Below are positions 537-64,000 of a stretch of DNA of 64,000 nucleotides, in pieces (the first letter of the stretch is position 1; each line of letters starts with the position of its first letter). Location of the stretch: contig WVYX01000293.1 in NCBI GenBank assembly GCA_011772755.1, positions 58,949 to 122,948 of the forward strand, written 5' to 3'. The notes beneath the pieces were generated by a model. It had not been told where the DNA came from, did no database searches, and saw only the letters and a list, made by a program, of their open reading frames with translations. The DNA is from Gemmatimonadales bacterium. Its GTDB lineage: Bacteria > Gemmatimonadota > Gemmatimonadetes > Gemmatimonadales > GWC2-71-9. Both the position numbers and the translations under genes were made by a program.

Positions 537-1844
537 TTAGAACCCAAAGAAGATCATGCCCCCACCGCCGCCCATGCGTGGGTTGACGACATTCGCGAAC
601 TTGGAGCCGAACCGATAGCTGAAGCTGATGTTGGCGAAATAGTAGAAGGCGGTTTCGAACTGCCGGGTGCGGAGCAGACGTTCTTCCGGAGTCAAGCCGG
701 CTCCCGAAAGGAACAGTTGGTCTTTGATGCGGGATGCCCCGCCGAACATGTGGAAGTTGAGCCCGCGGAACAGGCGAATGGTGAACCCGCCGAACAGGTC
801 GATACGGTGCCTTTCTAGGTCGTGGAGGAATTGAGATGCGTCGAGCGAGGCGTTGATGTCGCCCCAGGGCTGTTGGATGCCGACGCTGACCTGAGCATTG
901 TGTATTGGCCGGACCTCCGAAGTCTTGTCGAATACCGTTACCTCCGTGTAGTTGAACGCTGCCACCCCGACCCGGTATTGGAACGTAAGCTGGCGCCGGG
1001 TCGACTCCGCATACGGATAGAGGTTGTACTCGAGCGCTGGGCCCGCTCGGACCGCTAGATCCTGGTTCACGAAGGTGTGCTTCAGCGCCGATGCCCGAAT
1101 GCCGGCAGCCCAATGGTCGCCAATGCTCCACACGGCCAGCCCCGAGAAGCTGTACCGCTGCTGCTCGTTGACGAACGTGGTGTCCAGCTCCGGAACATCG
1201 GTTGCATCCCGGCTATATCGGCCGGAAATGGAGAAGTCGAGCTTGAGGTCCTCGGCCGTACGGTTTGCCGATATCGATCCGTTTCCCGAGAAGTAACGCC
1301 ACTCGCTCTCACCGTTGAGGTTGCTGCCCACGCGGACCGTAAACACCCACAGGTTCCACGGATCCTCTACCGGGCCGGCCGGAGCTGCGACGGCGGGCGC
1401 CTCATACAGGATCCTGAGGCGCTCAGCGATGGGTGTCCCGGCCAGGTAGGGGATGAGCCCTAGTGTTACGGTTCGTACGAGGCCGGCGCGAACCTCCGTC
1501 TGTGTGTCCGTGTTGCTCGATACGTATACCAGGGTATCGACCCGCCCCGCGAACTGCTCCAGGCCGATGAAGGTTAGCGTGTGCTCCATTCCCCCGCCGC
1601 CGGTGCGCTGTGCCGTGCCCAGGATGTGCAGCTGTGCGTCCTGTCGGTCCCGCATCCAGTTCACGTACGGTATCTCGCGTCGGAAGTGGTCGAAGTCGCA
1701 GTGGAAGGTCTGGCAATCCAGGAACACCCGCAGGGCCTCTGTCGCTTGGGCTTGCTGCTGTGCCGGTTCTTGGGCCGCCGTCGCGGTCAGAGGTAGTGCG
1801 CACGCAATGCAGGCCGCGCTGAGCCGGAGAGCGTGTCGTTTCAT
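537..1844 (-). CDS. Putative outer-membrane beta-barrel protein (family not recognised)
   Basis: ORF 537..1985 trimmed to ATG 1844 (MKRHALRLSAACIACALPLTATAAQ signal peptide); C-terminal ...MIFFGF aromatic terminus typical of OM barrels. Confidence 0.7.
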   Translation of the reverse strand: MKRHALRLSAACIACALPLTATAAQEPAQQQAQATEALRVFLDCQTFHCDFDHFRREIPYVNWMRDRQDAQLHILGTAQRTGGGGMEHTLTFIGLEQFAGRVDTLVYVSSNTDTQTEVRAGLVRTVTLGLIPYLAGTPIAERLRILYEAPAVAAPAGPVEDPWNLWVFTVRVGSNLNGESEWRYFSGNGSISANRTAEDLKLDFSISGRYSRDATDVPELDTTFVNEQQRYSFSGLAVWSIGDHWAAGIRASALKHTFVNQDLAVRAGPALEYNLYPYAESTRRQLTFQYRVGVAAFNYTEVTVFDKTSEVRPIHNAQVSVGIQQPWGDINASLDASQFLHDLERHRIDLFGGFTIRLFRGLNFHMFGGASRIKDQLFLSGAGLTPEERLLRTRQFETAFYYFANISFSYRFGSKFANVVNPRMGGGGGMIFFGF

Positions 1845-2070
1845 GGGATCCTCGCCTGGTAGCGTCGAGCGGACGTTGTCGGTCCTTGAATGCCCGCGAA
1901 CGGCCAAACCCCTGGGGCCGTGACGGGCAACGGCTTCCGTGGTCCCGGTCCGGTCGTCGGCGTAGACGGTGGGAGGCGGCGTCACCCGGGCGGCGCGCCG
2001 TAGAAGCGATCAGGTGACGCTGGAGAGCTACGTCCGGCGCACTGCCCAAGATGCCCGAGGGGCTATAACA

Positions 2071-3459: not shown

Positions 3460-3681
3460 TTACCTGGGGAACGACTTGGCAATCTCGCACCCTTTCAGGC
3501 AGCCCTCGAACGCGGGCACGCAGTAGCCGCCCCATCCCAGCAGGCCGCAGGCGACAAAGCCGGCCACGCAGGTAGCCTCGCATAGACCGGTCGCCGCCGC
3601 CGCCTCAGTGGGCCGAGGGTTGACAGCGGCCAACAACTGAAGCGTGACCGCAACCACAATGACTCGCAAGATCCGCCTCAC
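3460..3681 (-). CDS. Secreted six-cysteine mini-protein A (73 aa precursor, ~45 aa mature)
   Basis: GTG start with AAGGAGG 5 nt upstream; signal MRRILRVIVVAVTLQLLAAVNPRPTEA|A; mature part C-x3-C-x6-C-x8-C-x6-C-x3-C. Confidence 0.75.
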   Translation of the reverse strand: MRRILRVIVVAVTLQLLAAVNPRPTEAAAATGLCEATCVAGFVACGLLGWGGYCVPAFEGCLKGCEIAKSFPR

Positions 3682-3724
3682 TGTAACCTCCTTCGTGGAA
3701 TCGTTGCTCCCTCTCAGCAGGCGG

Positions 3725-3943
3725 TTAGGAGAAAGCTTTACACGAGAAGATGCATGACGCCTGATAGATACTGCACGCGATCACATCGTTGTACCTCGGC
3801 ATGCACTCGTAGGCCGTCGCTAGCGTGCAACCCACTAAGCAAAAGTCAATGATGGGGATTGCCTCGCTCCTCTTGACAGGTGTGCTGGCAAGCAGCAACA
3901 GCAATGCAGCCGAAACCCTAATGAAGTTCTTGAAACGAGCCAT
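3725..3943 (-). CDS. Secreted six-cysteine mini-protein B (72 aa precursor, ~44 aa mature)
   Basis: ATG with GAAGGAGG 5 nt upstream; signal MARFKNFIRVSAALLLLLASTPVKRSEA|I; mature part C-x3-C-x7-C-x9-C-x6-C-x3-C; visibly lower GC. Confidence 0.75.
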   Translation of the reverse strand: MARFKNFIRVSAALLLLLASTPVKRSEAIPIIDFCLVGCTLATAYECMPRYNDVIACSIYQASCIFSCKAFS

Positions 3944-3996
3944 CCGGCCCTCCTTCCGCGCTGTCCCAGCGCAGCTTGAAGTGGAACTCGTGGGTA

Positions 3997-4572
3997 CTAG
4001 TCCCCCTCTCTGCTTACGCGCTCCAGCGCGACTTGAGCCAAGGCGGCGGCTTCAGCGTGCAACAGCCCCATGTGGCGAAACCACACTCGGTCGTCTCGGC
4101 CGATCACGAGTGTCGTGGGCACGACCCGGGTTCCCAAGGAACTCCAAAGAGCCGTCGGTTCTTCGACCTTGAGCACAGGTATCGGTGCAGGTTCGAAGTA
4201 CTCCGCCACCGACCCGGTCAGTCTCTGAGGGGTGAGCGCCACGCTCTCGACACCGCGGGACCGGGCTGTGCTCGCCAGCGCAATCCAGCCCTCCTTCTGG
4301 GCGTCGCACACCGGACAGTCAGTTCGGAATACCATGACCAGGTAGGCGCCTGAGTCTGCATCGTCGAACAGGCGCGCCCGTGCTGACTGCTCATCCACCA
4401 CGTTCACGGGGACCACCGCAGGCTGTAGCTCCGGCAGGGATGCGCCTGCCTGCCGGGCGTTGTCGTCCCGAGAAATGAACATCCACACAGCGACAACGAG
4501 AGCGCCGAGCGTCGCCACGTCGATCACACGCCCGAGCTGTGCGCGGAGGCTGTGCGGGATTGTCCCAGTCAT
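3997..4572 (-). CDS. Membrane-anchored TlpA/ResA-like thiol-disulfide oxidoreductase (thioredoxin fold)
   Basis: N-terminal TM helix (VIDVATLGALVVAVWMFI), CPVC active-site motif, cis-Pro-type VPTTLVI; GAGGA SD upstream. Confidence 0.8.
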   Translation of the reverse strand: MTGTIPHSLRAQLGRVIDVATLGALVVAVWMFISRDDNARQAGASLPELQPAVVPVNVVDEQSARARLFDDADSGAYLVMVFRTDCPVCDAQKEGWIALASTARSRGVESVALTPQRLTGSVAEYFEPAPIPVLKVEEPTALWSSLGTRVVPTTLVIGRDDRVWFRHMGLLHAEAAALAQVALERVSREGD

Positions 4573-5542: not shown

Positions 5543-6004
5543 TTAGTGGTATCCGTCGAACCGCTGTGGGCCTCGCCGACCCACCACCGCAGCGACGCCT
5601 ACAGTAAGTCCTGTAGGCGTCGCCGGCCTGGTTACACCTAATGCGTAACCAGACAGACTGCTTGAACCAGCGGAGTTGGTTGCCCTTACCTTGTAGTAAT
5701 ACGTCGTGCCGCTTGAAAGACCGGTATTCGTGTAGCTGGAATTACTTCCACTGTAAACCCGACTATATGTGCCCGTAGCACTGGTTGATCTATAGAGCTG
5801 ATAACTCGTGGCCCCCTTGGAAGGATTCCAGTCAATGAACAACGATGATGTTGTCGCTTTCCCTACTGTAAGACCCGTAGGTGTCGGTGGAGCAGTTCCA
5901 TCTGAAGTGATTGGCGGTTCTGCTATGGGACTGTCCTTACACCCATACAAAGTGGCGAGTCCTAATGCACCGGCCGCCGCAATTGCATGAAGCCCAGTTC
6001 TCAT
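5543..6004 (-). CDS. Fibronectin type III domain lipoprotein (second FN3 repeat truncated)
   Basis: MRTGLHAIAAAGALGLATLYGC lipobox; PPTPTGLTV...YYYKVRATNSAGSS is a classic FN3; alternative start at 6031; lower GC than flanks. Confidence 0.7.
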   Translation of the reverse strand: MRTGLHAIAAAGALGLATLYGCKDSPIAEPPITSDGTAPPTPTGLTVGKATTSSLFIDWNPSKGATSYQLYRSTSATGTYSRVYSGSNSSYTNTGLSSGTTYYYKVRATNSAGSSSLSGYALGVTRPATPTGLTVGVAAVVGRRGPQRFDGYH

Positions 6005-6151
6005 TCTCGCGGCCCAACCATGTCTGACCATACTTCTATTCGAGCTCTGTGTGTCTATCAGCTTTTGTTCCGCGGGACGGTCTCGGAATCGACCCCCCCA
6101 CACAGCCGGCGTCAACACCTGTTGTCATCGGTTCATGACTCCGCCCACCAA

Positions 6152-6919
6152 CTACCGATCCCCTGTTGCCCGTTGGCGGGCCGCCTCCAGCACTTCAGTG
6201 GCGTCCGTGAATAGGGAGTTGGGGAGATCCACGCGGTATGCCCTGAGAGTTATCAGGTCGGTAGTGGGATCCCGAGTCAGAGCATAGACCACTCCATTGT
6301 CTAGGGTGAAATCTCTCCAGGCGGCCGGGAAGACCGCCTTGGCCAGATAGACTCCGTCCTGGGAAAGAAAATGGAGCGTGGCGTTTCCAGAACCGAATTC
6401 ATCGGGATTTTGCTCGAGAAGCGCTGCGAGGCGACCGGAGGGATCGAACCGTAGTGGTCCGAAGCGGCACTTCACGCGCCATCTCTCCTCCATGACGATT
6501 ACGTACTGCTGCTCCAGTTCGGATATGCCCCCGCTGGTGGCCAGCCTGCGTCGCAGCTCAGAAAGGGCACGGTCTCGCTCAGTTTCCGATACTGCCTCAA
6601 CGGGGAGATCAATCCTACTATCCATCATGAGGCCGCCAGCCCGGTCGAAGACCTGGATCTGGGGAGTCGTCAACCGTAGACGAGCGGCACCCCCCGCCCA
6701 TGAGAAGAGATCGGGAGCGAGCGTGAGGGTAAACGTGGTTGTCTGTCCCGCTCCGGACTCGCCCGAGAAGACCGTGCGCTCCATGGAGGCCGTCCAGGTA
6801 CCGGACACGTCCACGGGAGCCGTGTCGTGCAACAGGTTGAGCTCCTCGCAACCGCACAGGGCGGCGGCGACCAAGGCGAGGAGTCCTGTCACGCTCCATC
6901 GTTGAAGTGAATGTCGCAT
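6152..6919 (-). CDS. Hypothetical lipoprotein
   Basis: MRHSLQRWSVTGLLALVAAALCGC lipobox; 255 aa; the C-terminal part resembles propeller blades (GVVYALTRD...). Confidence 0.65.
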   Translation of the reverse strand: MRHSLQRWSVTGLLALVAAALCGCEELNLLHDTAPVDVSGTWTASMERTVFSGESGAGQTTTFTLTLAPDLFSWAGGAARLRLTTPQIQVFDRAGGLMMDSRIDLPVEAVSETERDRALSELRRRLATSGGISELEQQYVIVMEERWRVKCRFGPLRFDPSGRLAALLEQNPDEFGSGNATLHFLSQDGVYLAKAVFPAAWRDFTLDNGVVYALTRDPTTDLITLRAYRVDLPNSLFTDATEVLEAARQRATGDR

Positions 6920-7302
6920 GACGCGCTCCCCTGCAAGCAGAAGGTACCGGATTCAATTCCGGCGGCTCTGGGATCGTCGTCGGGGTATGGCGTCCTACGG
7001 GGCGTCGTACAGCGGCGGCAGGCCGGGAAGGACCACCGGATTCTGTTGTTGGAACCATCTCCTTACACCGTTCATGAAATCCCATTGAACTGAGTATGAA
7101 GTCGGGTGCGCTTCACCATCTGCGACGGAACCGCAGTCCCAGCGCGTGCGACGCACCAAGAACGAGCCGTAACCCGTTGTCACCCTCAGATGAAGCGTAC
7201 ATCGTGACGATGTGACCGACTTCGGCCGGCCGTGAGACCCACGTGACGTCCTGTCACACAGATCGCCTTGGAATTCTCCGTGGCTGGAGCGGCCCTCCCG
7301 TC

Positions 7303-9492
7303 CTACAGCCTGGTGAGATATGTCAGCTTCGCCACCAACCCCCTGTTCGACAGCTGCCAGAGTTCGTTCCCAACCCCCCGCTGCTCCGTCAGCACGATGA
7401 AGAGATCGCTTCCGGGCCGATGGATGAAGTTGAGCCGCAGGTTGACGGAGAAGTCCTTGTCCAGGGAGTTGTACTGCAGCAACGCGTTGGTGGTGAACTT
7501 GGTGGAGAATGCATAGCCCAATCGGAGTGAGGTGATGTGAGACGTCAACTTCCCGCCCGGCACGTCGACTCGATTCCACTCGTGCGACAGTTCCATTGAC
7601 ACCTGTGGACTCGGCGACAGTCCGACGCTGGGTTCGACGGACCAGAGCGTGCCTCCAAAGAACTGCTCCAAGCCGCCTCGCACACGGCCGACCACTGCCC
7701 GTTGGCGGCCGCTGTGGAGGAACAGCCGAAGCGCCCGAGTATCGTATCGTCCGCTTGGTATCGGAATCGAATCGGCCAACATAAAGCCTTCGTCCAACTG
7801 CGTCTCCCCAACGTCGAACATGGCCCTAAAGCTATCCCCGGACTCGAACTCGGGGTCCACGGCGAAGCTCACCCCCCAATCCTGCATCCTCCCATCGGTG
7901 GTGGAGATGTACTCCCCCTCCACGCTGGTCTCGATGACGCGGATCCCCCAGCGGCCCGGCCGGGGAGAGAGCCGGAACTCCGCTCGGGTCTGGCGAATGT
8001 CGCTGCGTGTGATAAAGCCGAGGTCGGCCCGGGCCTGTGACCCGACTGTGAGATGCTGGAGCAATGCTCCCACGAGGTCGGTCGAGTAGTCTGCAGTGAC
8101 GGAATACGTGTGGTCATTCCCGCCCGCACCGCTGGTGAAGCTCCGGTTGTAGAACCCCTTTACGTTCAATGTGGGATGGGGCCAGAATGAACCGTCCACC
8201 GCCGCTACCGTATTTGATCCATCGCCGTTCCGCCGGTCCGTTACCATCAACCCGAGAAAGTTGTTCTCCCCAATGTCCCGTTTTATTCGAGCCACCGAGT
8301 GGCCGGTTATCGGCACGTCGCCGGATTCCGCGGTGAGGACGCTCATCAACCCCACGGTCTGGCCACCGACCCTGCCGGTGAGGCGCGCGCCTCCGAGGAT
8401 CGGTATTTCGCCTTCCCATCCGATTCCAATACGGCGGGAGAAAAAGAGCTGGTATGGCGGAGGACCGAATCCGCCGCGGAACCCCACGTCGAATACCCCC
8501 GCGTTCTCGAGAAAGAAGTCCCGCTTCTCGGGATAGAAGAGCGAGAAACGGGTGAGGTTCACCTGCTCGTCGTCCACCTCGACCTGCGCGAAGTCGGTGT
8601 TCAACGTCAAATCGAGGACCAACCCCGGTAGGAGCTCCGACTTGAGATCCAGACCGATATCGGTCTGACGCTCGACGGGCGTCTGTCCGTCGGCATCGAG
8701 CTCCTGCCGAGTGCCTGCCAGAGCGAAGGGCTTCAGCTCCACGTTGATCCCGTACCGTGGCAGGTTCTCCATGCCAATCAGATGCCCCGCCCGACTCACC
8801 CGCTCGAACCCTTCGTTATCCCGCGACCACGACTGCCACAGCACCATCTCGCTCTTGCGCCGGATGGTCCTGTACACGTTGAATCCCCACGGTTCTCCTT
8901 GGCCGTCTTCCGGATATCTCAGCGTACGAAATGGAATGGCGAATTCCGCCGACCAGCCCTGGGCGTGCCGGACTGCGGCTGCCTGCCATACCGCCCTCCA
9001 GTCCACGTTGATCTCGGCTCCCTCGTCGGTGATGAGGGCCTCGAACTCCGCACCGTTGGGGTTCGTGGCGAACACGAAGGCGTTGCGGCTGTCGTGGAAG
9101 GTGTCGAACAGAATAGCTACGGCATCGTCGCCGGCGAACTGGAAGTCGTGCCGGGCCTCCATGATCTGGTCTCTCGCAAGGATTCGGCTTACCACTCGGT
9201 CCGGCTCCCGATCGAAGGCCATCACCGCCACGTAAATGTTCCTATCGTCGATCGCGATCCTGACTTCCGTGGCTTCCGTAGCCGGGGCTCCCTCATCGGG
9301 TTCCTGCTGCCGGAAATCCCGGATCACCGCTGCCCGCTGCCAGAATGCTTCTTCGATCACACCGTCCAGGTGCAGGGCCTGCCCAGGGGTCAGCCGAAGG
9401 GCCTGGATCTGGTCGGCGCGGGAATCCTGAGCCGCCAAGTGGCTCGTGGCACATCCAACAAGTAGAAGAAGAGCGAACGACTGTCTTACCAT
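7303..9492 (-). CDS. DUF5916/CBM9-like large secreted or outer-membrane protein
   Basis: ORF trimmed to ATG 9492 (MVRQSFALLLLVGCATSHLAAQ signal); N-terminal LDGVIEEAFWQRAA...DFRQQEPDEG resembles CBM9-like/DUF5916 proteins as I remember them. Confidence 0.65.
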   Translation of the reverse strand: MVRQSFALLLLVGCATSHLAAQDSRADQIQALRLTPGQALHLDGVIEEAFWQRAAVIRDFRQQEPDEGAPATEATEVRIAIDDRNIYVAVMAFDREPDRVVSRILARDQIMEARHDFQFAGDDAVAILFDTFHDSRNAFVFATNPNGAEFEALITDEGAEINVDWRAVWQAAAVRHAQGWSAEFAIPFRTLRYPEDGQGEPWGFNVYRTIRRKSEMVLWQSWSRDNEGFERVSRAGHLIGMENLPRYGINVELKPFALAGTRQELDADGQTPVERQTDIGLDLKSELLPGLVLDLTLNTDFAQVEVDDEQVNLTRFSLFYPEKRDFFLENAGVFDVGFRGGFGPPPYQLFFSRRIGIGWEGEIPILGGARLTGRVGGQTVGLMSVLTAESGDVPITGHSVARIKRDIGENNFLGLMVTDRRNGDGSNTVAAVDGSFWPHPTLNVKGFYNRSFTSGAGGNDHTYSVTADYSTDLVGALLQHLTVGSQARADLGFITRSDIRQTRAEFRLSPRPGRWGIRVIETSVEGEYISTTDGRMQDWGVSFAVDPEFESGDSFRAMFDVGETQLDEGFMLADSIPIPSGRYDTRALRLFLHSGRQRAVVGRVRGGLEQFFGGTLWSVEPSVGLSPSPQVSMELSHEWNRVDVPGGKLTSHITSLRLGYAFSTKFTTNALLQYNSLDKDFSVNLRLNFIHRPGSDLFIVLTEQRGVGNELWQLSNRGLVAKLTYLTRL

Positions 9493-9759
9493 GTTTCTCA
9501 ATGTTTCTGCTCTGCACAGCTTGATGTTTGCGTCGTTGAGGCCGCTCGCCGCGAGCGTGTCCACCTCTACAGTCTACGGCCGGGCCGCCCCAGACGTTGA
9601 GATGCCGACTGGTCACAGAACTGTCGGAGACGAGCGGCTTGGCCCGGTTGCAACGCTTCGCACATCGTGACAGTTGTATTACGATGCGCTACGAGGCGGA
9701 GGGACGTCATCCCGATCTGGCCGCCTCCCTCGGAGGCTCTGCTTTTTCACAAGGTCGTG

Positions 9760-10130: not shown

Positions 10131-10550
10131 TCATCTTGCATATCCGACTGGATGGTTCAGGAACACGTACTGGGTCTCTTTCAGCTCGAGTATTCCTTTG
10201 ATCCTCTCCTTATCCATGGAGGATCGCGGACGTGTTTTCAAACCGGTCGCGGCACAAGACAGGGAGATATTCTGCGATATGATGCCCGCACCGATAGCTC
10301 CCCATTCGTATTTCAATTCGTTCGTTCCTGCTCGGAAGCCATCGGAATCTGATATCAAGACAATCTGAATCGCTGCCTCAGCGGGGGGCGGCGGCGCGGG
10401 AGGAGCATCAGTTGTAACAGTGGCATTTCCAGAACCTTCAGGCCTTGGTGCCGGTCTAGGTGGCCGCTGCATCATGATGGCCGATCTGAAATCACCGCCA
10501 AGCACAGGGACCAGCTCACGGCTTCTGTAATAGTAGACGGAAGACGCCAT
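10131..10550 (-). CDS. Hypothetical protein (island)
   Basis: 139-aa ORF in the lower-GC region; Pro/Ala-rich linker; no family recognised. Confidence 0.3.
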   Translation of the reverse strand: MASSVYYYRSRELVPVLGGDFRSAIMMQRPPRPAPRPEGSGNATVTTDAPPAPPPPAEAAIQIVLISDSDGFRAGTNELKYEWGAIGAGIISQNISLSCAATGLKTRPRSSMDKERIKGILELKETQYVFLNHPVGYAR

Positions 10551-14074: not shown

Positions 14075-15385
14075 TCAAACGACTTCCTTTGAAAACGTCG
14101 CACGATCACCGCTCGGGGTTCCGCCGGTTGCCTGGCTGGGGCGATTACCGCTCCCCAGCCCGGCGCGTACCCAAACCATGGTGCGCGTGCCGCTCTCCCA
14201 AGAGGTTCGAGCGAACCACGAAGGCGTCGCAAGCCTCGTCCGGCGGCTGGACAGCTCCGAGGCCAAGCGACATACTGCGCAGGGGCGAAAGCAGATTCCT
14301 GTCCAGAGGAGGTTGCACATGCGAGGGTCACTCTTCCTGCTGGCTGGACTGTTGACGGCGCTCAGCGCGCTCGGTTGCCGAGGCGCGCGATCATCAACGA
14401 GGAACCACCTCAAGATCGGCGCGGAGCGCGGGATCATGCTGCCGCGAACATCGACCCGGAATTCTGCTTCAAGTCGGCGCACGTACCGCCGTACCGAATC
14501 TTGCTGAGCGCTCGTGAGCGCCGGTGGGGCGTAGTCCCGAGTGACAATCGTGACGGTATCCCCACGCAGGGACATATTGACGAGCCGGTACTCATGGGTG
14601 ACGGCGGTCCAGACAAAGCCGCGGGGGTCGAACGTGCGAAGGACTCTGGGTGCGTACGGGAGCGGGAAAGTCATGCTCCCGCGCCGTGGTACATCCAGCT
14701 CCGGTGTTGCGATCGGGAGTGTGTCAGTCACGGCGCCCGCCGGGCCCACCCGGAGGAGAGACTCACCGGCACGGCCCTGGCCGGGAAGCACCACCGCATC
14801 GTACAGGACTCCTTCTGCGGTGAACCCACCTACCCACGGCAGACGATACAGTGGGGCGTCACGCCGATGCATCTCGAAGTCGTCGCCCTGGATTGCGGCG
14901 TACCGGGCATTCTCGGGGTCAACCAGCCAGATTGCGCCGTCGGGTGAAAGGCTCATGCCGACCACCCCTTCGAATTCACCAGGACCTGCCCCGCGGCGCC
15001 CGACGCTAGTCACGAAATCACCGTCAGGTCCAAACACCCGGAGTTCTCTGGCGAACCCATCGAAAACATAGATTCGCCCAGCCGTGTCGACCTCGATTGC
15101 GGTGATGCGGCCGAAGACGTCGGGACCCTGTCCTTCCGGGGACCCGATCCGGAGCGTTTCCTCGATCCTCCAGCCGGCCTGGCTGTGCCACACCCCAGCG
15201 GCAGGGTTCGAGACGAGAACAGCACCACCAGGTAAGCGCTGCACTTCACCAGCCCAGGTCGATTCCTCTGTACTGGCGTCCGATCCGCATGAAACGGTCA
15301 ACGTGGCAATCAGCACGACAAGCGCGTTGACGATTGCCGTTGGCGGAAGGCCCAACCTGGTCACAAGCTGCTCACCATTCATCAT
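14075..15385 (-). CDS. 6-bladed beta-propeller lipoprotein, 3' end possibly frameshifted
   Basis: Trimmed to ATG 15385 (…LIATLTVSCG lipobox); GRRGAGPGEFEGV motif; the last ~130 codons are R/S/P/C/W-rich and unlike the paralogues. Confidence 0.65.
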   Translation of the reverse strand: MMNGEQLVTRLGLPPTAIVNALVVLIATLTVSCGSDASTEESTWAGEVQRLPGGAVLVSNPAAGVWHSQAGWRIEETLRIGSPEGQGPDVFGRITAIEVDTAGRIYVFDGFARELRVFGPDGDFVTSVGRRGAGPGEFEGVVGMSLSPDGAIWLVDPENARYAAIQGDDFEMHRRDAPLYRLPWVGGFTAEGVLYDAVVLPGQGRAGESLLRVGPAGAVTDTLPIATPELDVPRRGSMTFPLPYAPRVLRTFDPRGFVWTAVTHEYRLVNMSLRGDTVTIVTRDYAPPALTSAQQDSVRRYVRRLEAEFRVDVRGSMIPRSAPILRWFLVDDRAPRQPSALSAVNSPASRKSDPRMCNLLWTGICFRPCAVCRLASELSSRRTRLATPSWFARTSWESGTRTMVWVRAGLGSGNRPSQATGGTPSGDRATFSKEVV

Positions 15386-15686
15386 CTCGCACGTACCGAT
15401 CGCCGCGGCGCACCCGCCTTGCCGCGAGCGCGGCTCGTGCTCCGCGGCGATGCGGTACCTGAGCGCGTATTGCACGCCGAGCTCGTCGCGCTCGGTGGCC
15501 CACACATGGTTGTCCCTGAGGATGAGACGCGGCTGCGTTGGGCCGTGCCTCGCCGGAGACGGCCCATGTGCTATTCAGAATGGCGCACGCCCCCAATCTG
15601 GCCTGAGGATCTGCCCCTCATCAGGCCGCTGCTGACGCCCAGGAAGTACGACGAGTTGCTACGATCGCTCGAGGCGCGTCGACCGC

Positions 15687-23414: not shown

Positions 23415-26105
23415 ATGCGGGCCTACACGCTACTGGTAAGCACGCTGCGAACACTCTTCCGAAAAAAGGAATTGGATAACGACCTGACGGAAGAGTTGCG
23501 GAGCTTCGTGGACATGGTGGCGGACGAGAAGATTCGAGCGGGCGCGAGTCCAGAGGATGCGTACCGCCAGGCCCGGATCGAACTAGGCGGCTTTACGCAG
23601 GTGACCGAACGAGTCCGAGAAGGGCGACTCGGGGCAAAGATCGGGACGTTCTTCCAAGATCTGCGATACGCCGCGCGCTCCCTGCGTCGCAGCCCGGGCT
23701 TCGCGATCGTGGCCATCCTGACGCTGGGCCTCGGGATAGGCGCCAACACCGCCATCTTCAGCCTGTACAACGCCCTGGTCCTCAGGACACTCCCGGTGCG
23801 GAATCCAGAGGAGTTGGTGCAGGTGACGTATGGGGACGGAAGAACGTACTTCACGAACCCGCTCTGGGAAGAGCTGAACTTGCAGCAGGATGCGCTATCG
23901 GGTGCGTTCGCCTTTGGGAGCGCCAACTTCAACCTGGCCGACGGCGGCGAGGTGAGGAACGTCCCAGGGTACTGGGTGAGCGGCGACTTCTTTCCTGTCC
24001 TCGGCGTCCGCCCCGTGCTAGGCCGCCTGCTTGCGAACAGCGATGACTACCGTGGCTGCCCGGCGGTTGCGGTGGTGAGTTATGGTTTTTGGCAGCGCGA
24101 GTTCGGTGGTGCGACCGACGTGGTCGGCACAACGTTGAGGCTGGACGGCAACGCCTTCGAGGTGGTAGGTGTCGTCCATGCTGCGTTCTCTGGTGTGGAT
24201 GTGGGAACAGCGATTGATGTATACACGCCGATCTGCACAGTACCGGTGATCTTTCGCGGAGACGGGCTGTTGGACCACAGGAGCTATTTGTTCCTCAACG
24301 TTCTCGGCCGCCTTGCCCCTGGTCTGACCGCCCTGCAGGCTGGGGCCCGCCTGGCTACGCTTTCGTCGCGCGTATTCGGCGCAACGGTCCCGCAAGACTA
24401 TGATGCCGAAGCCCAAGCCCGGTACCGCGCATACACGTTTGCAGTGCGGGCAGCCCCGAACGGCGTGTCCGAGTTGCGGGGACGATACCGCGCCGCGCTT
24501 CTGGTATTGCTGGCAGTGGTGGGTGTAGTGCTGCTTATCGCCTGCGGCAACGTGGCGAGCCTGTTGCTGGCCCGCGCAACGAGGCGACAACACGAGGTGG
24601 CGATCCGGCGAGCGATCGGCTCGGGACGTGGACGGCTCGTCCGGCTACTGGTGACCGAGAGCCTGCTGCTCTCACTCTTGAGCGCTGTCGTCGCCGTCGT
24701 TTTCGCACGCTGGGCAAGCATTCTTCTGGTCGGGATGCTCTCCACGCGCAGCAACCTGTGGCTCGATCTCACCCTGGATTTGAGGGTTCTGGGCTTTACG
24801 ATGGCCGTGGCCACACTCACCGGCGTACTGTTCGGGCTGGCTCCAGCGTGGCGCTCGACAGGTGTCGCACCGCAAGCTGCGCTGCGAACAGCCAGGCAAG
24901 CGGTCACCGCTCGGCGCGGTCGGTTCGCGACGGGCAAGCTGCTAGTGATCGCGCAGCTCGCAATGTCGTTGTCTTTGGTCGTGGTTGCCGGCTTGTTGAT
25001 CGGTACCCTGACACGGCTGCAGAGACTCAACCCGGGTTTCAACCGTGACGGCGTTCTGTTGGTCTCGATTGACAAACGCAATGCGAGGTTCTCACCGGAG
25101 GAATCCCGCCAGGTGAATCAGGAACTGCTCACGCGTATGCGTGCCCTGCCTGGCGTTTCATCCGCGAGTGCGTCCCTGCTCACACCGATCAGTGGCAGCT
25201 CAGCGAGCACTCTTGTAGAGGTCGATGGGTACACGCCGTCCGTCCGGCAGGACATGCGTGTACGGTTCAACAGAACCAGCGACGCATTCTTCGCGACGCT
25301 GGAGACGCCGCTCTTGGCCGGTCGTGACTTCGATTCCCGCGATACCCCGCAGTCTATTCAAGTCGCGGTGATCAACGAGACCATGGCACACAGGTTCTTC
25401 TCCGAGTCGCAGCCGCTGGGGCGGCAGTTCCACCAACCGCGGGCTAGTGGTGATGCTCAGGCCTACGAGGTGATTGGCGTGGTCGCGGACACGAAATACC
25501 GATCCATCGGGGAAGCGACACAGCTAATTGTGTACTTCCCCCTGAGCCAGGAGGGGGGCTTTCCGGGTCCGGCGCTCCAGTTTCAGGTCCGGACCGATGG
25601 CGCACCTACCACTCTCGTCCCGGCGGTGGTCAGCCTGATGGAGGAAGTGCATCCGAGAATCTCCGTTCGGTTCTCGACCTTGGAGGACGACGTGGCGGCA
25701 TCACTCGCGCAGCCGAGGGTACTTGCCGTGCTTTCCGGGTTCTTCGGTGCCGTCGCCCTGTTGCTCGCGATGATCGGGCTTTACGGAACGCTCTCGTATC
25801 GGGTTACCAGCCGGCGCAACGAGATCGGTGTGCGGCTGGCTCTGGGAGCCGCGCGGACGCACGTGCTCGGGATGGTGATCGGCGAGGTCTGTCGCTTGGC
25901 AGTCGCGGGTATTGCGCTCGGCGTGGTCGTTGCGCTCGCGAGCACGCGGCTCTTGGCGACGTTCCTCTTCGGCGTGACAGCCACCGATCCAACAACGCTC
26001 GTTATGTCGGTAGTGGTGCTCGCAACGGTAGCCGTAGCGGCCGGCGCGCTACCAGCATGGCACGCGACTCGGCTCGATCCCATGGAGGCACTCAGGGAAG
26101 AGTAG
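23415..26105 (+). CDS. ADOP-family duplicated ABC permease (two MacB-like periplasmic + FtsX domains)
   Basis: 896 aa; FtsX-type 4-TM modules twice; C-terminal ...RATRLDPMEALREE; padR-linked as is typical. Confidence 0.85.
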   Translation: MRAYTLLVSTLRTLFRKKELDNDLTEELRSFVDMVADEKIRAGASPEDAYRQARIELGGFTQVTERVREGRLGAKIGTFFQDLRYAARSLRRSPGFAIVAILTLGLGIGANTAIFSLYNALVLRTLPVRNPEELVQVTYGDGRTYFTNPLWEELNLQQDALSGAFAFGSANFNLADGGEVRNVPGYWVSGDFFPVLGVRPVLGRLLANSDDYRGCPAVAVVSYGFWQREFGGATDVVGTTLRLDGNAFEVVGVVHAAFSGVDVGTAIDVYTPICTVPVIFRGDGLLDHRSYLFLNVLGRLAPGLTALQAGARLATLSSRVFGATVPQDYDAEAQARYRAYTFAVRAAPNGVSELRGRYRAALLVLLAVVGVVLLIACGNVASLLLARATRRQHEVAIRRAIGSGRGRLVRLLVTESLLLSLLSAVVAVVFARWASILLVGMLSTRSNLWLDLTLDLRVLGFTMAVATLTGVLFGLAPAWRSTGVAPQAALRTARQAVTARRGRFATGKLLVIAQLAMSLSLVVVAGLLIGTLTRLQRLNPGFNRDGVLLVSIDKRNARFSPEESRQVNQELLTRMRALPGVSSASASLLTPISGSSASTLVEVDGYTPSVRQDMRVRFNRTSDAFFATLETPLLAGRDFDSRDTPQSIQVAVINETMAHRFFSESQPLGRQFHQPRASGDAQAYEVIGVVADTKYRSIGEATQLIVYFPLSQEGGFPGPALQFQVRTDGAPTTLVPAVVSLMEEVHPRISVRFSTLEDDVAASLAQPRVLAVLSGFFGAVALLLAMIGLYGTLSYRVTSRRNEIGVRLALGAARTHVLGMVIGEVCRLAVAGIALGVVVALASTRLLATFLFGVTATDPTTLVMSVVVLATVAVAAGALPAWHATRLDPMEALREE

Positions 26106-35383: not shown

Positions 35384-35480
35384 GCCCCAGGTCCGGGGGG
35401 CGCGTGCGCGCGAACCGCGTCAGGACCGTGAAGGTAGCAGCGCTAAGCGATGACACGCGTCGCTTCGGGTAGCCTGGGGC
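35384..35480 (+). ncRNA. ffs: Small (4.5S-type) signal recognition particle RNA
   Basis: GTCAGGACCGTGAAGGTAGCAGCGCTAAGCGATGAC matches conserved domain IV of E. coli 4.5S (GUCAGGUCCGGAAGGAAGCAGCCAAGGCAGAUGAC, from memory); terminal stem GCCCCAGG/CCTGGGGC then GATTTT; sits just upstream of dnaX as in the B. subtilis scr-dnaX-yaaK-recR arrangement; ends approximate. Confidence 0.8.
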
Positions 35481-35496
35481 GATTTTCGAGTCTCCT

Positions 35497-55123: not shown

Positions 55124-56422
55124 TCATTCGTACCGCAGCGCCTCCACCGGATCCAGCCGCGCTGCCCGGTTCGCCGGGAGGAGGCCGAATACCAGCCCGA
55201 TTCCGATCGAAATCCCGGTCGCCACCACGGCGCTCCAGATCGGCACGCCGGTGTCGAACCTGAGCACACCATTGAGTACCTGCCCTGCTCCGAGTCCAAC
55301 GGCTATCCCCACCGCGCCTCCGGCGAATGTGAGTGTCGCCGATTCAATCAAGAACTGCCAGAGGATCTCTCGTCGCGTAGCTCCCATCGCCTTGCGGACG
55401 CCGATCTCTCGAGTGCGGCTGGTCACGGATACCATCATGATGGCCATCACTCCGATACCGCCGACCATCAGCGCTACGCTCGAGAGCACGATCATTACCA
55501 GGAAGAACACACCCGTGAGCTGGTTGAACACGTTCAGAATCTGATCTGACGTGATCATGTCGAAGGTGTTCGGGTCTCCCGGTCTCAGACCCCGCATCCG
55601 GCGGAGCTGCAGCGTGGCCGCGTCCATGGCGGCATCGACGGTGACCCCGTCACGGGGCTTGACCAGGATGAGGAGGGATTGCGTCTCGTCGTACCGAAAC
55701 GCATGTCGCGCGGCCTCGAACGGGACGATGGCTGATATCTCCTGACCGGGGGGCTGGAAGATGTTTTCCGGCTTGCGATACAGCCCTATCACTCTGAACG
55801 CTCGTCCGCCCACCCGCATGACGCGGCGGAGGGGGTTCACTTGGCCGAATACCTTCTCCGCCGCTTCACGTTCGAGTATGACCACGCCGGTCCCGGTGCG
55901 TACCTCTGTGGGCGTGAAGGTCCGGCCCGAGATGATAGCGCCTCCCAGAACCTCCATGAAGCGCTCGTCCGCTCCGTAGACCACGGTGAGTTGGCTGCGC
56001 ACACCCTCGTATTCCAGGCGCTCGAACACACCCACCCAGATGGAGCTGTAGTGGATCTCGGGCAGCCGCTCGATGGCATCGGCTTCTCTCCGTCGGAGGA
56101 CGGGGCGGATGCGCACCTCCCGCGGCAGGGCGTCGGGGTTGAGGGGGGTGGATGAGAAGAACCGGAGGATCCGGAAGGTGGTGGGCCCAACCACCTCCAG
56201 CGTGTTGAAGATCTGGGACCGGATTCCGTGCACGATGGATGCCATGGCCATGACGGTGGCGACCCCGATGATGATGCCGAGGATCGTGAGGGCCGAGCGC
56301 AGCTTCTGCGATCGGATTGCGGCCACTGCCATGCCGGCGCCCTCGGCGAAGTTGACGAACTTCACTGCCCCGCCCCTGTCCCCTGCCACTCCCGGCGGTT
56401 CGGCGGACGGGCGGTCGAGCAT
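55124..56422 (-). CDS. MacB-like ABC permease 4 (FtsX + periplasmic core domain)
   Basis: KLRSALTILGIIIGVATV, C-terminal ...NRAARLDPVEALRYE; alternative GTG start at 56365. Confidence 0.88.
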   Translation of the reverse strand: MLDRPSAEPPGVAGDRGGAVKFVNFAEGAGMAVAAIRSQKLRSALTILGIIIGVATVMAMASIVHGIRSQIFNTLEVVGPTTFRILRFFSSTPLNPDALPREVRIRPVLRRREADAIERLPEIHYSSIWVGVFERLEYEGVRSQLTVVYGADERFMEVLGGAIISGRTFTPTEVRTGTGVVILEREAAEKVFGQVNPLRRVMRVGGRAFRVIGLYRKPENIFQPPGQEISAIVPFEAARHAFRYDETQSLLILVKPRDGVTVDAAMDAATLQLRRMRGLRPGDPNTFDMITSDQILNVFNQLTGVFFLVMIVLSSVALMVGGIGVMAIMMVSVTSRTREIGVRKAMGATRREILWQFLIESATLTFAGGAVGIAVGLGAGQVLNGVLRFDTGVPIWSAVVATGISIGIGLVFGLLPANRAARLDPVEALRYE

Positions 56423-56424
56423 TG

Positions 56425-56446
56425 CGCTTTCCGCTTCCCGCTTCCC
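56425..56446. repeat. GCTTYCC heptamer x3 in the intercistronic spacer
   Basis: GCTTTCC GCTTCCC GCTTCCC G. Confidence 0.7.
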
Positions 56447-56480
56447 GAAGCTCCGTGCAGCATGGGGATTCAGCTCCTCC

Positions 56481-57728
56481 TCACTGCTCGAAGCGAAGTG
56501 CTGCGATGGGGTCCAGCCGCGCCGCCCGAGATGCCGGGTAGACCCCGAAGATGAGCCCTATGCTTGCGCCGAGGCCGAGGGCCACCGAGACCGACCACCA
56601 TGTGATGCGTGCGGGTAGCGGAGAGACCACTGCCACCAGCTGCGCCAGCGCCCAGCCCGCCACGATCCCCAGCAGGCCTCCCAGCGTGGCCAGGGCCACG
56701 GATTCCGCCAAGAACTGTTGCTGGATGTCCGTCCGTCGGGCGCCCACTGATTTGCGGATGCCGATCTCCCGGGTGCGTTCGTGCACGCTCATCAGCATGA
56801 TGTTCATGATGACGATTCCGCCCACCACGATCCCAATCGCCACCACCGCCGGAACCACGGTGAAGATGATCCGGGTGAGGTTTTGCCAGAACGTGATCAA
56901 GCCTTCCGCCGTGTCCACGGTGAAGTCATTGGCCTGGCCCGGACGCAGCTGGCGGGCGATGCGCATGGCTTCCTCCGCCCGCAGCATGGCGTCAGCCACC
57001 TGCGCAGCCTCGGGCATCTTCACCGAGATCACGGTGGTCTGGCGGCGGCCGTACATCGCCTCGAAGAGGGTGAGCGGGAGCATCACGAACCCGTCCATGG
57101 ACTGTCCCAGGACGGTGCCCTTCTTCTCGACGATGCCCTTGACGGCCACCTGAAAGCCTCGGACGCGGATCCTCCTGCCGATGGCGGCGTCGAAGTTGTC
57201 GAACAGCTTGTCGGCTACGTCGAAGCCGAGGATGGCCACACGCCGCCGCTCGCGGACGTCGATTTCCGTCAGCGGCTCGCCAGCCGCGGTCTCGTAGTCC
57301 TGGACAACCTGATAGGGCGCCGTCACGCCCACCACGAGGACGTCCCCCACCGTGCGATTCCGCCAGCTGACGTCCGCCATCGGCGTCGGCCACCCGGACT
57401 GCAGGGCGATAGCTTCGGCGTCAGGGATAGCCCGCGAAACGTAGTCGGCTTCCTCAGGGCGGATGACGGGCCGACGCTGCAGCTCGCGCCACTCCTCGTC
57501 GTCGATCAGCCCAACGGAAATCGGTATGCGCCGGATCTGAAACGCGTTCCGGCCCACGATTGCCCCGGCGAGGTTCTCCCGCACGTAGGCGTTCATTCCC
57601 TGGATGATGGCCACCACGGCAACGAGGAAGGCTACCGAGACGATGATGCCGAGCAGGGTGAAGAACGACCGCAACTTGTGGTTGGCGATCTCTCGGAGGG
57701 CGAGACGGAGTCCTTCGAGAAGAGGCAT
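56481..57728 (-). CDS. MacB-like ABC permease 3
   Basis: HKLRSFFTLLGIIVSVA..., ...SRAARLDPIAALRFEQ. Confidence 0.88.
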   Translation of the reverse strand: MPLLEGLRLALREIANHKLRSFFTLLGIIVSVAFLVAVVAIIQGMNAYVRENLAGAIVGRNAFQIRRIPISVGLIDDEEWRELQRRPVIRPEEADYVSRAIPDAEAIALQSGWPTPMADVSWRNRTVGDVLVVGVTAPYQVVQDYETAAGEPLTEIDVRERRRVAILGFDVADKLFDNFDAAIGRRIRVRGFQVAVKGIVEKKGTVLGQSMDGFVMLPLTLFEAMYGRRQTTVISVKMPEAAQVADAMLRAEEAMRIARQLRPGQANDFTVDTAEGLITFWQNLTRIIFTVVPAVVAIGIVVGGIVIMNIMLMSVHERTREIGIRKSVGARRTDIQQQFLAESVALATLGGLLGIVAGWALAQLVAVVSPLPARITWWSVSVALGLGASIGLIFGVYPASRAARLDPIAALRFEQ

Positions 57729-57750
57729 GGAGGCAATCTACTCAAGGGGG

Positions 57751-57816
57751 AGGTGGGGGAGATGGGGGAGGTGATCAATCATGTCTTCTCTCCCTCCTCC
57801 CCCATCTCCCCCACCT
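57751..57816. repeat. Perfect 21-bp inverted repeat, 24-nt spacer, between two permease genes
   Basis: 57751-71 is the exact reverse complement of 57796-816 (checked); contains the GGGGAGGTGGGGGAG core. Confidence 0.95.
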
Positions 57817-57818
57817 AA

Positions 57819-59051
57819 TCACTCATACCGTAGTGCCTCTACCGGATCCAGTCTCGCCGCCCGGGCGGCGGGATAGAGGCCAAAAGCGACACCCGTCAGG
57901 ATCGACATTCCCAGGGCCGCAACCACGGAGAACATGGGCACCTTGGCTGGCAGCGGCGTCGCGTTGGCGACGATGAAACTGATGCCGCCGCCCAGGAGCA
58001 TGCCGATGGCGCCGCCCACGGCGGTGAGCGTGGCTGCCTCAACCAGGAACTGCCACAGGATCTCCCGGCGCTTTGCACCCAGTGCCTTGCGCACGCCGAT
58101 CTCTCGGGTGCGCTCGGTGACCGAGATCATCATGATGGCCACGACGCCCACGCCACCCACCATGAGCCCAACGCTGGAGAGGGCAATCATCACCAGGAAG
58201 AACATGCCGGTCACCTGGTTCCAGCTGTCCAGCAGTTTGTCCTGCGTCACGATGGCGAAGTTGTTCTCCTCGGCTGGGCGGAGCTCGCGCATCGAGCGCA
58301 TGACGGCCGTGACATCCTCGATGGCAGCCTGAACCGTGGTGTTTTCCTTCGGCGTGACCAGAAAGTCCATCCAACCCCGCCAGTGGGGGATGTACTTCGA
58401 GAAGGCGGAGTGCGGTATGACCGCTTCAGGCCGGTTGCCCTCGCCGAAGATGTCGGGGGGCGGGATATACACGCCGATCACCTCGAACGGCACGCCTGAG
58501 ATCTTGATCCATTTGCCGATAGGATCCAGCAGGCCGAACATCTCGCTCGCCAGCTTCTCGTTCACCACCACGACGCGGGAACTCGCCGCGTACTCCAGGT
58601 TGGTGAACGAACGACCCGGCATGATGTCCCCGGACACTTCGGCCCACCGGGCGCCCCGCCCCCGGATGCTGACCGACTCGAGCTTGCGATTGCCGTGCTC
58701 CACCTCGCGGCCTGCCCCCTCATCCACCACGACGCGGTGAATGGTGGGCAGCTGGGCGATCCGGTCAGCCTCCTCGACTGTCAGGGGTGGGTTGCGGCGC
58801 CATGGGCTCATCTCGTCAGACCCGTCGGAGACCTGGATTCCCGCCTGGAAAAAACGGAACACGAAGAACGTGCGGGGTCCCAGCTGGTTGAAGATGTCCT
58901 CCACGCCCCGGTTGATGCCGGTGATCATGGAGCCGATCACCATGACCACCATGACGCCGATGGCGACGCCGAGGATGGTGAGGGCCGCTCGCACCTTGCT
59001 GGCCCGGAGTGAAGCGAGCGCGATGCCGACGCCTTCAAACAGCTGAGTCAT
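57819..59051 (-). CDS. MacB-like ABC permease 2
   Basis: SKVRAALTILGVAIGV..., ...ARAARLDPVEALRYE. Confidence 0.88.
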   Translation of the reverse strand: MTQLFEGVGIALASLRASKVRAALTILGVAIGVMVVMVIGSMITGINRGVEDIFNQLGPRTFFVFRFFQAGIQVSDGSDEMSPWRRNPPLTVEEADRIAQLPTIHRVVVDEGAGREVEHGNRKLESVSIRGRGARWAEVSGDIMPGRSFTNLEYAASSRVVVVNEKLASEMFGLLDPIGKWIKISGVPFEVIGVYIPPPDIFGEGNRPEAVIPHSAFSKYIPHWRGWMDFLVTPKENTTVQAAIEDVTAVMRSMRELRPAEENNFAIVTQDKLLDSWNQVTGMFFLVMIALSSVGLMVGGVGVVAIMMISVTERTREIGVRKALGAKRREILWQFLVEAATLTAVGGAIGMLLGGGISFIVANATPLPAKVPMFSVVAALGMSILTGVAFGLYPAARAARLDPVEALRYE

Positions 59052-59054
59052 GAG

Positions 59055-60296
<1,242 letters not shown>

Positions 60297-60300
60297 GGAC

Positions 60301-62249: not shown

Positions 62250-62264
62250 TGCGATCCTGTCTTT

Positions 62265-63761: not shown

Positions 63762-64000
63762 AGCTCCACCTTCATTTTTCGTGGTGATTGCCCAACCACC
63801 AGTACGGCGGGGTACCTGGGAAGTTTCAACCCGAGACATCCCGCAGATGCTCGGCCAAACCTAGCCCCGGGCGGGTACGGTTCCAAGGTGCGGAACCCGC
63901 ATCCCAGGGCGGAGTTGCGTCGTCGCTACCGGCCCGCGGCGACGGCTCGCACGGCTACCAGCCGGCGACTGGGAATGGCCAGCTTGGTGAGCCGGCCCCG

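Follow-up and report, generated by a model that had tools for sequence, protein, structure and literature searches.

Two adjacent six-cysteine precursor genes

The 64,000-nucleotide stretch of Gemmatimonadales contig WVYX01000293.1 considered here (assembly GCA_011772755.1, positions 58,949 to 122,948 of the forward strand; hereafter the window) carries two adjacent minus-strand genes for small exported peptides, designated A and B, each with six cysteines (Cys), whose spacing in A is mirror-symmetric (Table 1). Both open reading frames (ORFs) were found exactly as an initial annotation, made from the sequence alone, had described them, Cys spacings included. Each precursor begins with a typical Sec signal peptide, in which a basic N-region is followed by a hydrophobic core and a cleavage site of the small-x-small type. 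The genes stand in an operon with a thioredoxin-like protein, a beta-propeller, and a 172-amino acid (aa) protein, treated below.

Table 1. Features of the peptide locus and its neighbours (window coordinates; TM, transmembrane)
Feature	Position	Strand	Sequence	Remarks
Peptide A precursor, 73 aa	3460..3681	(-)	MRRILRVIVVAVTLQLLAAVNPRPTEAAAATGLCEATCVAGFVACGLLGWGGYCVPAFEGCLKGCEIAKSFPR	GTG start; signal peptide ~residues 1-28/30; mature ~43-45 aa (3463-3597)
Peptide B precursor, 72 aa	3725..3943	(-)	MARFKNFIRVSAALLLLLASTPVKRSEAIPIIDFCLVGCTLATAYECMPRYNDVIACSIYQASCIFSCKAFS	ATG start; signal peptide residues 1-28 (3860-3943); cleavage predicted SEA|IP; mature 44 aa (3728-3859)
Six-Cys scaffold of A	3487..3582	(-)	C-x3-C-x6-C-x8-C-x6-C-x3-C	Mirror-symmetric; pattern scan
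Six-Cys scaffold of B	3740..3841	(-)	C-x3-C-x7-C-x9-C-x6-C-x3-C	Pattern scan
Shine-Dalgarno sequence of A	3687..3694	(-)	GAAGGAGG	Strong; 5 nt before GTG
Shine-Dalgarno sequence of B	3948..3957	(-)	GGAAGGAGGG	Strong; 4 nt before ATG
Membrane-anchored thioredoxin-fold protein, 191 aa	3997..4572	(-)		N-terminal TM helix; periplasmic TlpA/DsbE-like domain
Active-site motif of thioredoxin-like protein, residues 86-89	4306..4317	(-)	CPVC	Its only two Cys; CPAC in orthologue
Exported, probable NHL-repeat/DUF5128-like six-bladed beta-propeller, 394 aa	2257..3441	(-)		No Cys in exported part
Acidic protein, 172 aa	4596..5114	(-)		Lacks signal peptide and TM segment; unmatched in Pfam, NCBIfam, PADLOC, and PDB
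Exported protein with outer-membrane-barrel-like C-terminus	537..1985	(-)	...MIFFGF	Start likely 1844 (MKRHALRL...); no family or PDB match

Spurious ORFs are common in GC-rich genomes, and 9 kb here hold 119 ORFs of at least 30 aa. It is nevertheless exceedingly improbable that A and B are chance open frames or unexpressed remnants. Both have strong Shine-Dalgarno sequences as well as signal peptides. A six-frame scan of the whole window for the six-Cys pattern returned two adjacent sites only, which are A and B; in 100 first-order Markov simulations of the window it occurred 0.04 times on average, and no simulation produced it twice. Orthologues with invariant Cys and conserved synteny occur on contigs from several independent samples, and both ORFs are present in the searched protein collection, where A is labelled a “hypothetical protein” from a Gemmatimonadales metagenome-assembled genome and B has no name. 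The spurious-ORF reading is effectively refuted: A and B are real, co-conserved Sec-type precursor genes.

G+C content at third codon positions (GC3) is of the coding type in both genes, with values of 0.80 (A) and 0.68 (B); the window as a whole has 64% GC. Over its whole length the B gene has 51% GC, a sharp local dip from the 64-66% of its neighbours and the window, which is largely explained by an amino acid composition rich in Ile, Phe, Tyr, Lys, and Asn (GC at first codon positions 0.38).

Relatives and conservation

The sole relatives found belong to a second lineage, represented by nine short metagenome contigs from several sequencing runs. This lineage was reached independently through the neighbouring propeller gene, whose orthologue there (P0004, 45% identity) lies directly downstream of B and A. 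For mature B, an exhaustive phmmer search of 1.84 billion representatives found one relative besides the query itself (P0008; 51% identity, E = 1.4e-5). When 5.8 billion protein clusters were searched by word index with each peptide, only the queries came back; degenerate-pattern scans derived from the A and B alignments gave no match in GTDB genomes, JGI metagenomes, or IMG/VR (two scans each), nor did tblastn of PLSDB plasmids with either peptide. Neither has a match in Pfam or NCBIfam (E ≤ 1) or in PADLOC (E ≤ 0.1), and a PDB sequence search gave chance-level similarities only (a P2X receptor at E 0.12, PsaC at E 1.1). The A/B sequence family is thus extremely rare, with two known lineages among some 15 billion proteins.

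Between the lineages, the orthologues of A and B share 39-41% overall identity, and all 12 Cys are kept (contigs L001 and L007-L010; P0008); at that level of identity, the probability of keeping six of six by chance is ~0.003 per peptide. The A orthologue has spacing 3-6-7-6-3, again mirror-symmetric, and the B orthologue 3-7-10-6-3 (L001; for B also P0008), with the change in length confined to the central interval (8 residues in the window and 7 in the second lineage for A; 9 and 10, respectively, for B). An alignment of homologues had been proposed as a check on the hairpin idea, with invariant Cys columns and loop length varying only at the turn; both are seen in the second lineage. Acidic residues are conserved as well: E7, E31, and E38 in A, D5 and D25 in B. 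Within-lineage variation amounts to four differences in 447 nt, two synonymous and two non-synonymous, all of them in B and none in A.

Gene order in the second lineage is always thioredoxin-like (212 aa, CPAC), B-like (71 aa), A-like (68 aa), propeller (393 aa). The same order holds in the window, with 39-45% identity between the corresponding proteins.

Comparison of the two peptides

The initial annotation had left open whether the two peptides, alike in Cys scaffold but in little else, derive from an old duplication or form an obligate pair. A functional pair is favoured, because each lineage has kept both A and B and has them in one order, and the two presumably act as a pair. Duplication finds no counterpart in the profiles: in an hhalign comparison of A with B only the signal peptides align, with no homology between the mature parts.

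A motif, P-h-h-[D/E]-x-C-L-x-x-C, is common to all four peptides (window 3487-3525 and 3811-3859; L001 73-519), located in the C-terminal helix of A (3487-3525) but in the N-terminal helix of B (3811-3859). BLAST and MAFFT likewise pair these two helices, with an E-value of 0.003 for that single comparison. The shared motif could reflect a circular-permutation-like origin, or a pseudo-symmetry within an A-B complex, although hhalign gives no confirmation; duplication or circular permutation is unproven.

Predicted fold and disulfide pairing

AlphaFold2 models from single sequences are confident helix-loop-helix structures for both mature peptides, as the initial annotation had anticipated: helices at residues 3-19 and 23-42 for A, with a predicted local distance difference test score (pLDDT) of 86.6, and at residues 2-23 and 26-43 for B (pLDDT 90.6). 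The mature peptides are hydrophobic, with grand average of hydropathy values of 0.76-0.89 and few charges, and in both helices of B the faces opposite the Cys are hydrophobic.

The same annotation had noted that a CX3C motif places both its Cys on one face of a helix. By helical wheel analysis, all three Cys share a face in three of the four helices: they span an arc of 40 degrees (resultant 0.96) in each helix of A and in the second helix of B. The exception is helix 1 of B, whose third Cys (at x7 spacing) is off by ~100 degrees. A conserved Met-Pro comes directly after this Cys, and the helix must therefore be irregular near the turn.

In an antiparallel hairpin, residues facing each other across the two strands have a constant sum of residue numbers, i+j. 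Peptide A gives sums of 43/43/43 for the nested pairs C1-C6, C2-C5, and C3-C4, and its orthologue gives 44/44/44; the corresponding values for the B pair are 47/47/48 and 48/48/49. Intra-helix disulfides between positions i and i+4 are sterically disfavoured, so nested inter-helix bonds would be the only self-consistent pairing. It is probable that A and B fold as two-helix hairpins, as modelled, pinned by three nested disulfides. The C1-C6/C2-C5/C3-C4 connectivity is a prediction from the Cys positions.

Genes of the module

The peptides belong to a conserved five-gene module: thioredoxin-like protein, peptide B, peptide A, NHL/DUF5128-type propeller, and 172-aa protein. The thioredoxin-like protein has weak matches to Redoxin, Thioredoxin_2, and DsbE models, and its closest solved structure is a putative DsbE (3gl3, E 0.001). 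In the second lineage, its orthologue (39% identity) is directly upstream of B, with a stop codon that overlaps the start of B.

The propeller gene begins 18 nt past the stop codon of peptide A. The protein matches NHL domains of Thin and TRIM71 in the PDB (E 9e-11 to 1e-7, over one to two blades) and also 4raa; its similarity to PF17170 (DUF5128) is 15.3 bits, under the 22.9-bit cut-off, and there is a weak ScyF-NHL match. Two of its relatives (P0005, P0006) have precomputed PF17170 matches. On another contig (L011, GCA_012975005.1), an apparent split of the propeller gene at ~10520-10545, giving ORFs of 106 and 292 aa, is a 20-base run of N, i.e., a scaffolding gap.

A homologue of the 172-aa protein is found on L001 (33% identity, E 6e-10) after the propeller gene; the gene travels with the module, though its position differs between the lineages. 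In the window, the place after the propeller is taken by the exported protein at 537..1985, and in the short contigs of the second lineage by the 172-aa homologue. The former is a neighbour of the module and a candidate member only.

No glycosyltransferase, radical-SAM, MNIO, or C39 domain was found in scans that covered the operon, all genes for ~10 kb upstream of the peptides, and the majority of the window's large ORFs, though not all of those at 38.9-50.4 kb or in the 3.4 kb at its start beyond the outer-membrane-protein-like gene.

More distant propellers were found beside other Cys-rich small proteins. On contig L005 (146-421, 460-1506, 1558-1800) a 91-aa secreted six-Cys protein is followed by a propeller (32% identity) and then by a thioredoxin-like protein with the sequence FRSDCPACQ. 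The spacing of the 91-aa protein is C-x10-C-x10-C-x9-C-x10-C-x4-C, in which i/i+11 intervals again put Cys on one helical face. On L002 and L003 (1404-3876; 10001-11260), three genes in a row downstream of a sigma-54 activator encode a 412-aa propeller, a DsbA-like protein with a membrane anchor and a CPFC motif, and a secreted protein of 87 aa with six Cys that is rich in Gly, Thr, and Ser. Both arrangements have the same theme, propeller plus thioredoxin fold, with unrelated six-Cys proteins. A further propeller homologue (P0007, also L002/L003) is wedged between two RND transporter genes. The window itself has a second DUF5128 six-bladed propeller gene, at 14075-15505 (-), with a score of 29.9 bits, above the Pfam cut-off; its last ~100 residues are of low complexity and look out of frame, and neither a thioredoxin gene nor a Cys-rich small ORF is next to it.

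Similarity to known systems

Alpha-helical hairpins stabilized by cystines and containing CX3C motifs are already known from plants, mitochondria, and animal toxins. The initial annotation had not been aware of this fold class among Sec-exported bacterial peptides, which overstates its novelty: helical hairpins with nested disulfides occur in bacteria too, in the glycocins and in peptides of the gallocin A type, though with double-glycine leaders. The new features here are three predicted nested staples in ~44 residues, Sec export in a diderm phylum, the pairing of such peptides, the conserved partnership with a thioredoxin-like protein and an NHL propeller, and a sequence family of two lineages.

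Among the glycocins (sublancin 168, glycocin F, thermoglycocin), sublancin has the arrangement C-x6-C ... C-x6-C, with the same x6 interval as C2-C3 and C4-C5 of peptide A. This C-x6-C element is on both helices of A; the corresponding intervals in B are x7 and x6. The glycocins are helix-loop-helix peptides with nested disulfides across the two helices, and thiol-disulfide oxidoreductases or isomerases are part of their gene clusters (PMC12457901). They differ in that a SunS-type glycosyltransferase modifies the loop by S- or O-glycosylation, whereas no such gene is present here and the loops GLLGWGGY (A) and MPRYNDVIA (B) are without Ser, Thr, or Cys; in that their leader is cut by a C39-peptidase ABC transporter, with neither a C39 nor an ABC gene in the module here; and in that the third bond of the three-disulfide glycocins forms a separate C-terminal loop rather than a third nested staple.

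Gallocin A consists of two predicted helical hairpins, GllA1 and GllA2, of 42 and 60 aa, with few charges and a disulfide needed for activity; a thioredoxin-domain surface protein encoded at the locus is needed for its full killing activity (PMC10100652). The subgroup of class IIb two-peptide bacteriocins to which it belongs (as do brochocin C, thermophilin 13, and also ABP-118) resembles A and B in its tandem genes for two different peptides, predicted stapled helical hairpins, and scarcity of charges. Gallocin A itself also has long mature peptides (here 44 and 45 aa) and an extracytoplasmic thioredoxin-domain helper, which here would be the TM-anchored CPVC protein directly upstream of B. 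It has one disulfide per peptide, as against a predicted three here; a double-glycine leader and ABC exporter, as against a Sec signal peptide; Gram-positive producers, as against a diderm; and a small hairpin-like immunity peptide, of which none was recognized here, with no NHL propeller. Bacteriocin family models gave no match to A or B at E ≤ 1.

Plant alpha-hairpinins and the cystine-stabilized alpha/alpha toxins of animals have the form CX3C...CX3C, with two antiparallel helices and nested disulfides (PMC11591084, PMC7191063). In A, B, and their two orthologues the four outermost Cys likewise form CX3C...CX3C, with helix-loop-helix predicted for A and B. The hairpinins and toxins, however, have four Cys and two disulfides, as against six Cys here and, by their number, three disulfides; they are eukaryotic, usually cationic, and cut from larger precursors (vicilin-type or multimodular in plants), whereas A and B are bacterial Sec pre-peptides, and no homology is detectable. 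The small Tim proteins also have a twin-CX3C helix-loop-helix with nested disulfides, but are ~90-aa hexameric chaperones of the mitochondrial intermembrane space, oxidized by Mia40; the Pfam Tim10/DDP model did not match A or B at E ≤ 1.

Thuricin CD is a two-peptide sactibiotic of hydrophobic helical hairpins with three nested cross-links and Cys at i, i+4, i+8-type positions. Its links are sulfur-to-alpha-carbon thioethers made by radical-SAM enzymes from Cys on one arm, whereas A and B have Cys on both arms and the ORFs scanned include no radical-SAM gene. Crambin, the thionins (~45 aa), and the saposin-like proteins are hydrophobic and membrane-interacting, with nested C1-C6, C2-C5, and C3-C4 bonds on, or around, antiparallel helices. 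They are eukaryotic, with other Cys spacings, extra beta strands in the thionins, and four to five helices in ~80 aa in the saposins, and none has a sequence or Foldseek match to A or B. The bufferins, periplasmic metallophores modified by MNIO enzymes, share a Sec signal peptide and conserved Cys with both peptides, but here no MNIO (DUF692)/DUF2063 gene is adjacent, and the peptides match neither DUF2282 nor BUF_6/12Cys.

A thioredoxin-like domain is fused to an NHL propeller in NHLRC2 and SOQ1 (PMC6107167; bioRxiv 10.1101/2024.11.01.621559). The module resembles these in combining a thioredoxin-fold module and a six-bladed NHL propeller in an oxidizing or extracytoplasmic setting, but as separate genes, flanking two Cys-rich peptides, and the similarity is at the level of the NHL repeats only.

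Assignments as glycocin, sactipeptide, bufferin, methanobactin-like peptide, SCIFF, or TTQ/CTQ light chain were considered and rejected, the defining enzymes or residues being absent. Overall, each of the known hairpin families has defining features that the locus is without, be it a glycosyltransferase, a glycosylatable loop, a double-glycine leader, an ABC exporter, a radical-SAM enzyme, an MNIO, or a family-model match.

Possible functions

The favoured explanation is as follows. A and B would be made as Sec pre-peptides and cut to hydrophobic chains of ~43-45 residues, neutral to acidic. In the periplasm, each chain would form an antiparallel two-helix hairpin with an inner face composed of the disulfide ladder C1-C6, C2-C5, C3-C4. 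The membrane-anchored thioredoxin-like protein of the operon (CPVC or CPAC) may serve as a dedicated oxidase or isomerase, forming these bonds or correcting them. As a pair, the hairpins would work as a two-peptide, membrane-active, bacteriocin-like agent, much as gallocin A does with its thioredoxin-domain helper BlpT, and the NHL propeller and 172-aa protein could be accessory factors for binding, escort, or self-protection.

The role for the thioredoxin-like protein is plausible by analogy. Non-consecutive disulfides in the periplasm usually need an isomerase, not DsbA alone. Of the three proposed bonds, only C3-C4 joins consecutive Cys; vectorial oxidation by a general DsbA would tend to mispair the others, so an operon-encoded thioredoxin-like protein could well be a dedicated oxidase or isomerase. 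The bacteriocin-like activity of the pair, drawn from the likeness to gallocin A, is put forward tentatively, as possible but rather unlikely; the whole statement, structure and activity combined, comes close to an even chance without quite reaching it.

Several points weigh against this explanation. The family is known from two lineages only, too divergent from one another and too uniform internally for analysis of covariation or selection; the AlphaFold2 models were made without an alignment; and the third Cys of B departs from the helical phase. With a net charge of 0 to -3, the mature peptides are neutral to acidic, and most membrane-active bacteriocins are cationic. A Sec substrate in a diderm stops in the periplasm, and no immunity gene, dedicated exporter, or conserved outer-membrane route was recognized at the locus. 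Finally, TlpA/DsbE-like thioredoxins are usually reductants, and a role in keeping the Cys reduced fits equally well.

The hairpins could instead be periplasmic subunits or ligands of the NHL propeller, or substrates of a split thioredoxin-plus-NHL machine, with the thioredoxin-like protein maturing them and the propeller binding them in a stable complex. The propeller gene, so close behind A, is syntenic in both lineages, and the distant propellers of L005 and L002/L003 also adjoin a thioredoxin-fold protein and an unrelated secreted six-Cys protein. Hydrophobic outer faces, especially those of both helices of B, would suit burial in a partner, and the lack of a recognized exporter or immunity gene is in keeping with a periplasmic role. 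The layout also recalls methylamine dehydrogenase, with its propeller heavy chain, disulfide-rich light chain, and thioredoxin-like MauD. On the other side, no Trp or other cofactor-forming residue is conserved in either peptide; the only Trp of A is not. Nor is the association universal, since the 14075-15505 propeller has no Cys-rich peptide or thioredoxin gene nearby, and the argument for this hypothetical interaction draws on three locus types and gene context. This explanation is considered unlikely, if a serious contender. The natural fusions of thioredoxin-like and NHL domains in NHLRC2 and SOQ1 (PMC6107167; bioRxiv 10.1101/2024.11.01.621559) also speak for it, and suggest a more specific version: that the thioredoxin-like protein and propeller are a split bacterial counterpart of these, with A and B as natural substrates or clients. 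This is a distinctly doubtful proposition. If true, the locus type would be a periplasmic system devoted to binding small six-Cys proteins and folding them oxidatively, recurring with unrelated clients (the helical C-x10-C protein of L005, the Gly/Thr-rich one of L002), and would provide a substrate-defined example of what a thioredoxin-NHL pair does.

Alternatively, the Cys could be thiolate ligands for metal, with reduced A and B forming a four-helix bundle around a 12-Cys core as a periplasmic store or buffer for Cu(I) or another soft metal. The model for this would be the Csp1 copper storage proteins, with bufferin-type metallophores a looser comparison. Cys at i, i+4, and i+11 on one face are also the geometry of a Cys-lined helical bundle, the usually reductive class of the thioredoxin-like protein would suit the idea, the conserved acidic residues of A and B could help in metal binding, and copper-binding periplasmic Cys peptides with Sec signal peptides do exist (PMC11626156). 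Csp proteins, however, are four-helix bundles of ~120 aa with at least 13 core Cys and DUF326, as against 44-45 aa, two helices, and no Pfam match here; even at E ≤ 1 there was no DUF326/Csp, DUF2282, or bufferin match in Pfam or NCBIfam, and neither the operon nor the scanned flanks contain an MNIO/DUF692, DUF2063, copper-resistance, or metal-sensor gene. Where a soluble bundle with a Cys core would have a polar exterior, the faces without Cys are hydrophobic here; unprotected, facing Cys pairs in the periplasm are normally oxidized; and the mirror spacing and constant i+j are exactly those demanded by intramolecular cross-strand pairing, whereas a metal core has no need of them. Metal storage is accordingly judged highly unlikely.

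If the disulfide-stapled hairpin structure favoured above holds, a scaffold of ~44 residues locked by three staples would be made by the general Sec pathway and a single helper enzyme, offering an easily expressed and very stable helical hairpin for peptide engineering. Disulfide-stapled two-peptide systems would then also extend from the Firmicutes to the diderm phylum Gemmatimonadota, whose secreted peptides are to our knowledge almost unstudied. The thioredoxin-like protein and NHL propeller flanking the peptides provide a handle on the role of thioredoxin-NHL pairs, a question also for human NHLRC2. The weight of all this is limited by the confinement of the family to two uncultured lineages, by a fold class already known in bacteria, and by a function that is deduced from context.

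Other features of the window

Upstream of the module, 5543-9564 (-) encodes several envelope proteins in succession: a 191-aa secreted protein with a fibronectin-III domain, a probable lipoprotein (255 aa, no family match), and a DUF5916/CBM9 protein (753 aa). At the other end of the window, some 50 kb from the peptide locus and with no evident link to it, is a MacAB-TolC-type efflux cluster (55124-63839, minus strand) in which four paralogous MacB-type permeases (MacB_PCD + FtsX, each of 410-432 aa) stand in tandem, together with a single ABC ATPase, an HlyD-type adaptor, and an outer-membrane factor of the OEP family. The gene at 23415-26105 encodes a fused permease of double length (896 aa). 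The only Rfam match in the window is a bacterial small signal recognition particle RNA (RF00169, 49.6 bits) at 35385-35482 (+), just upstream of dnaX and recR.

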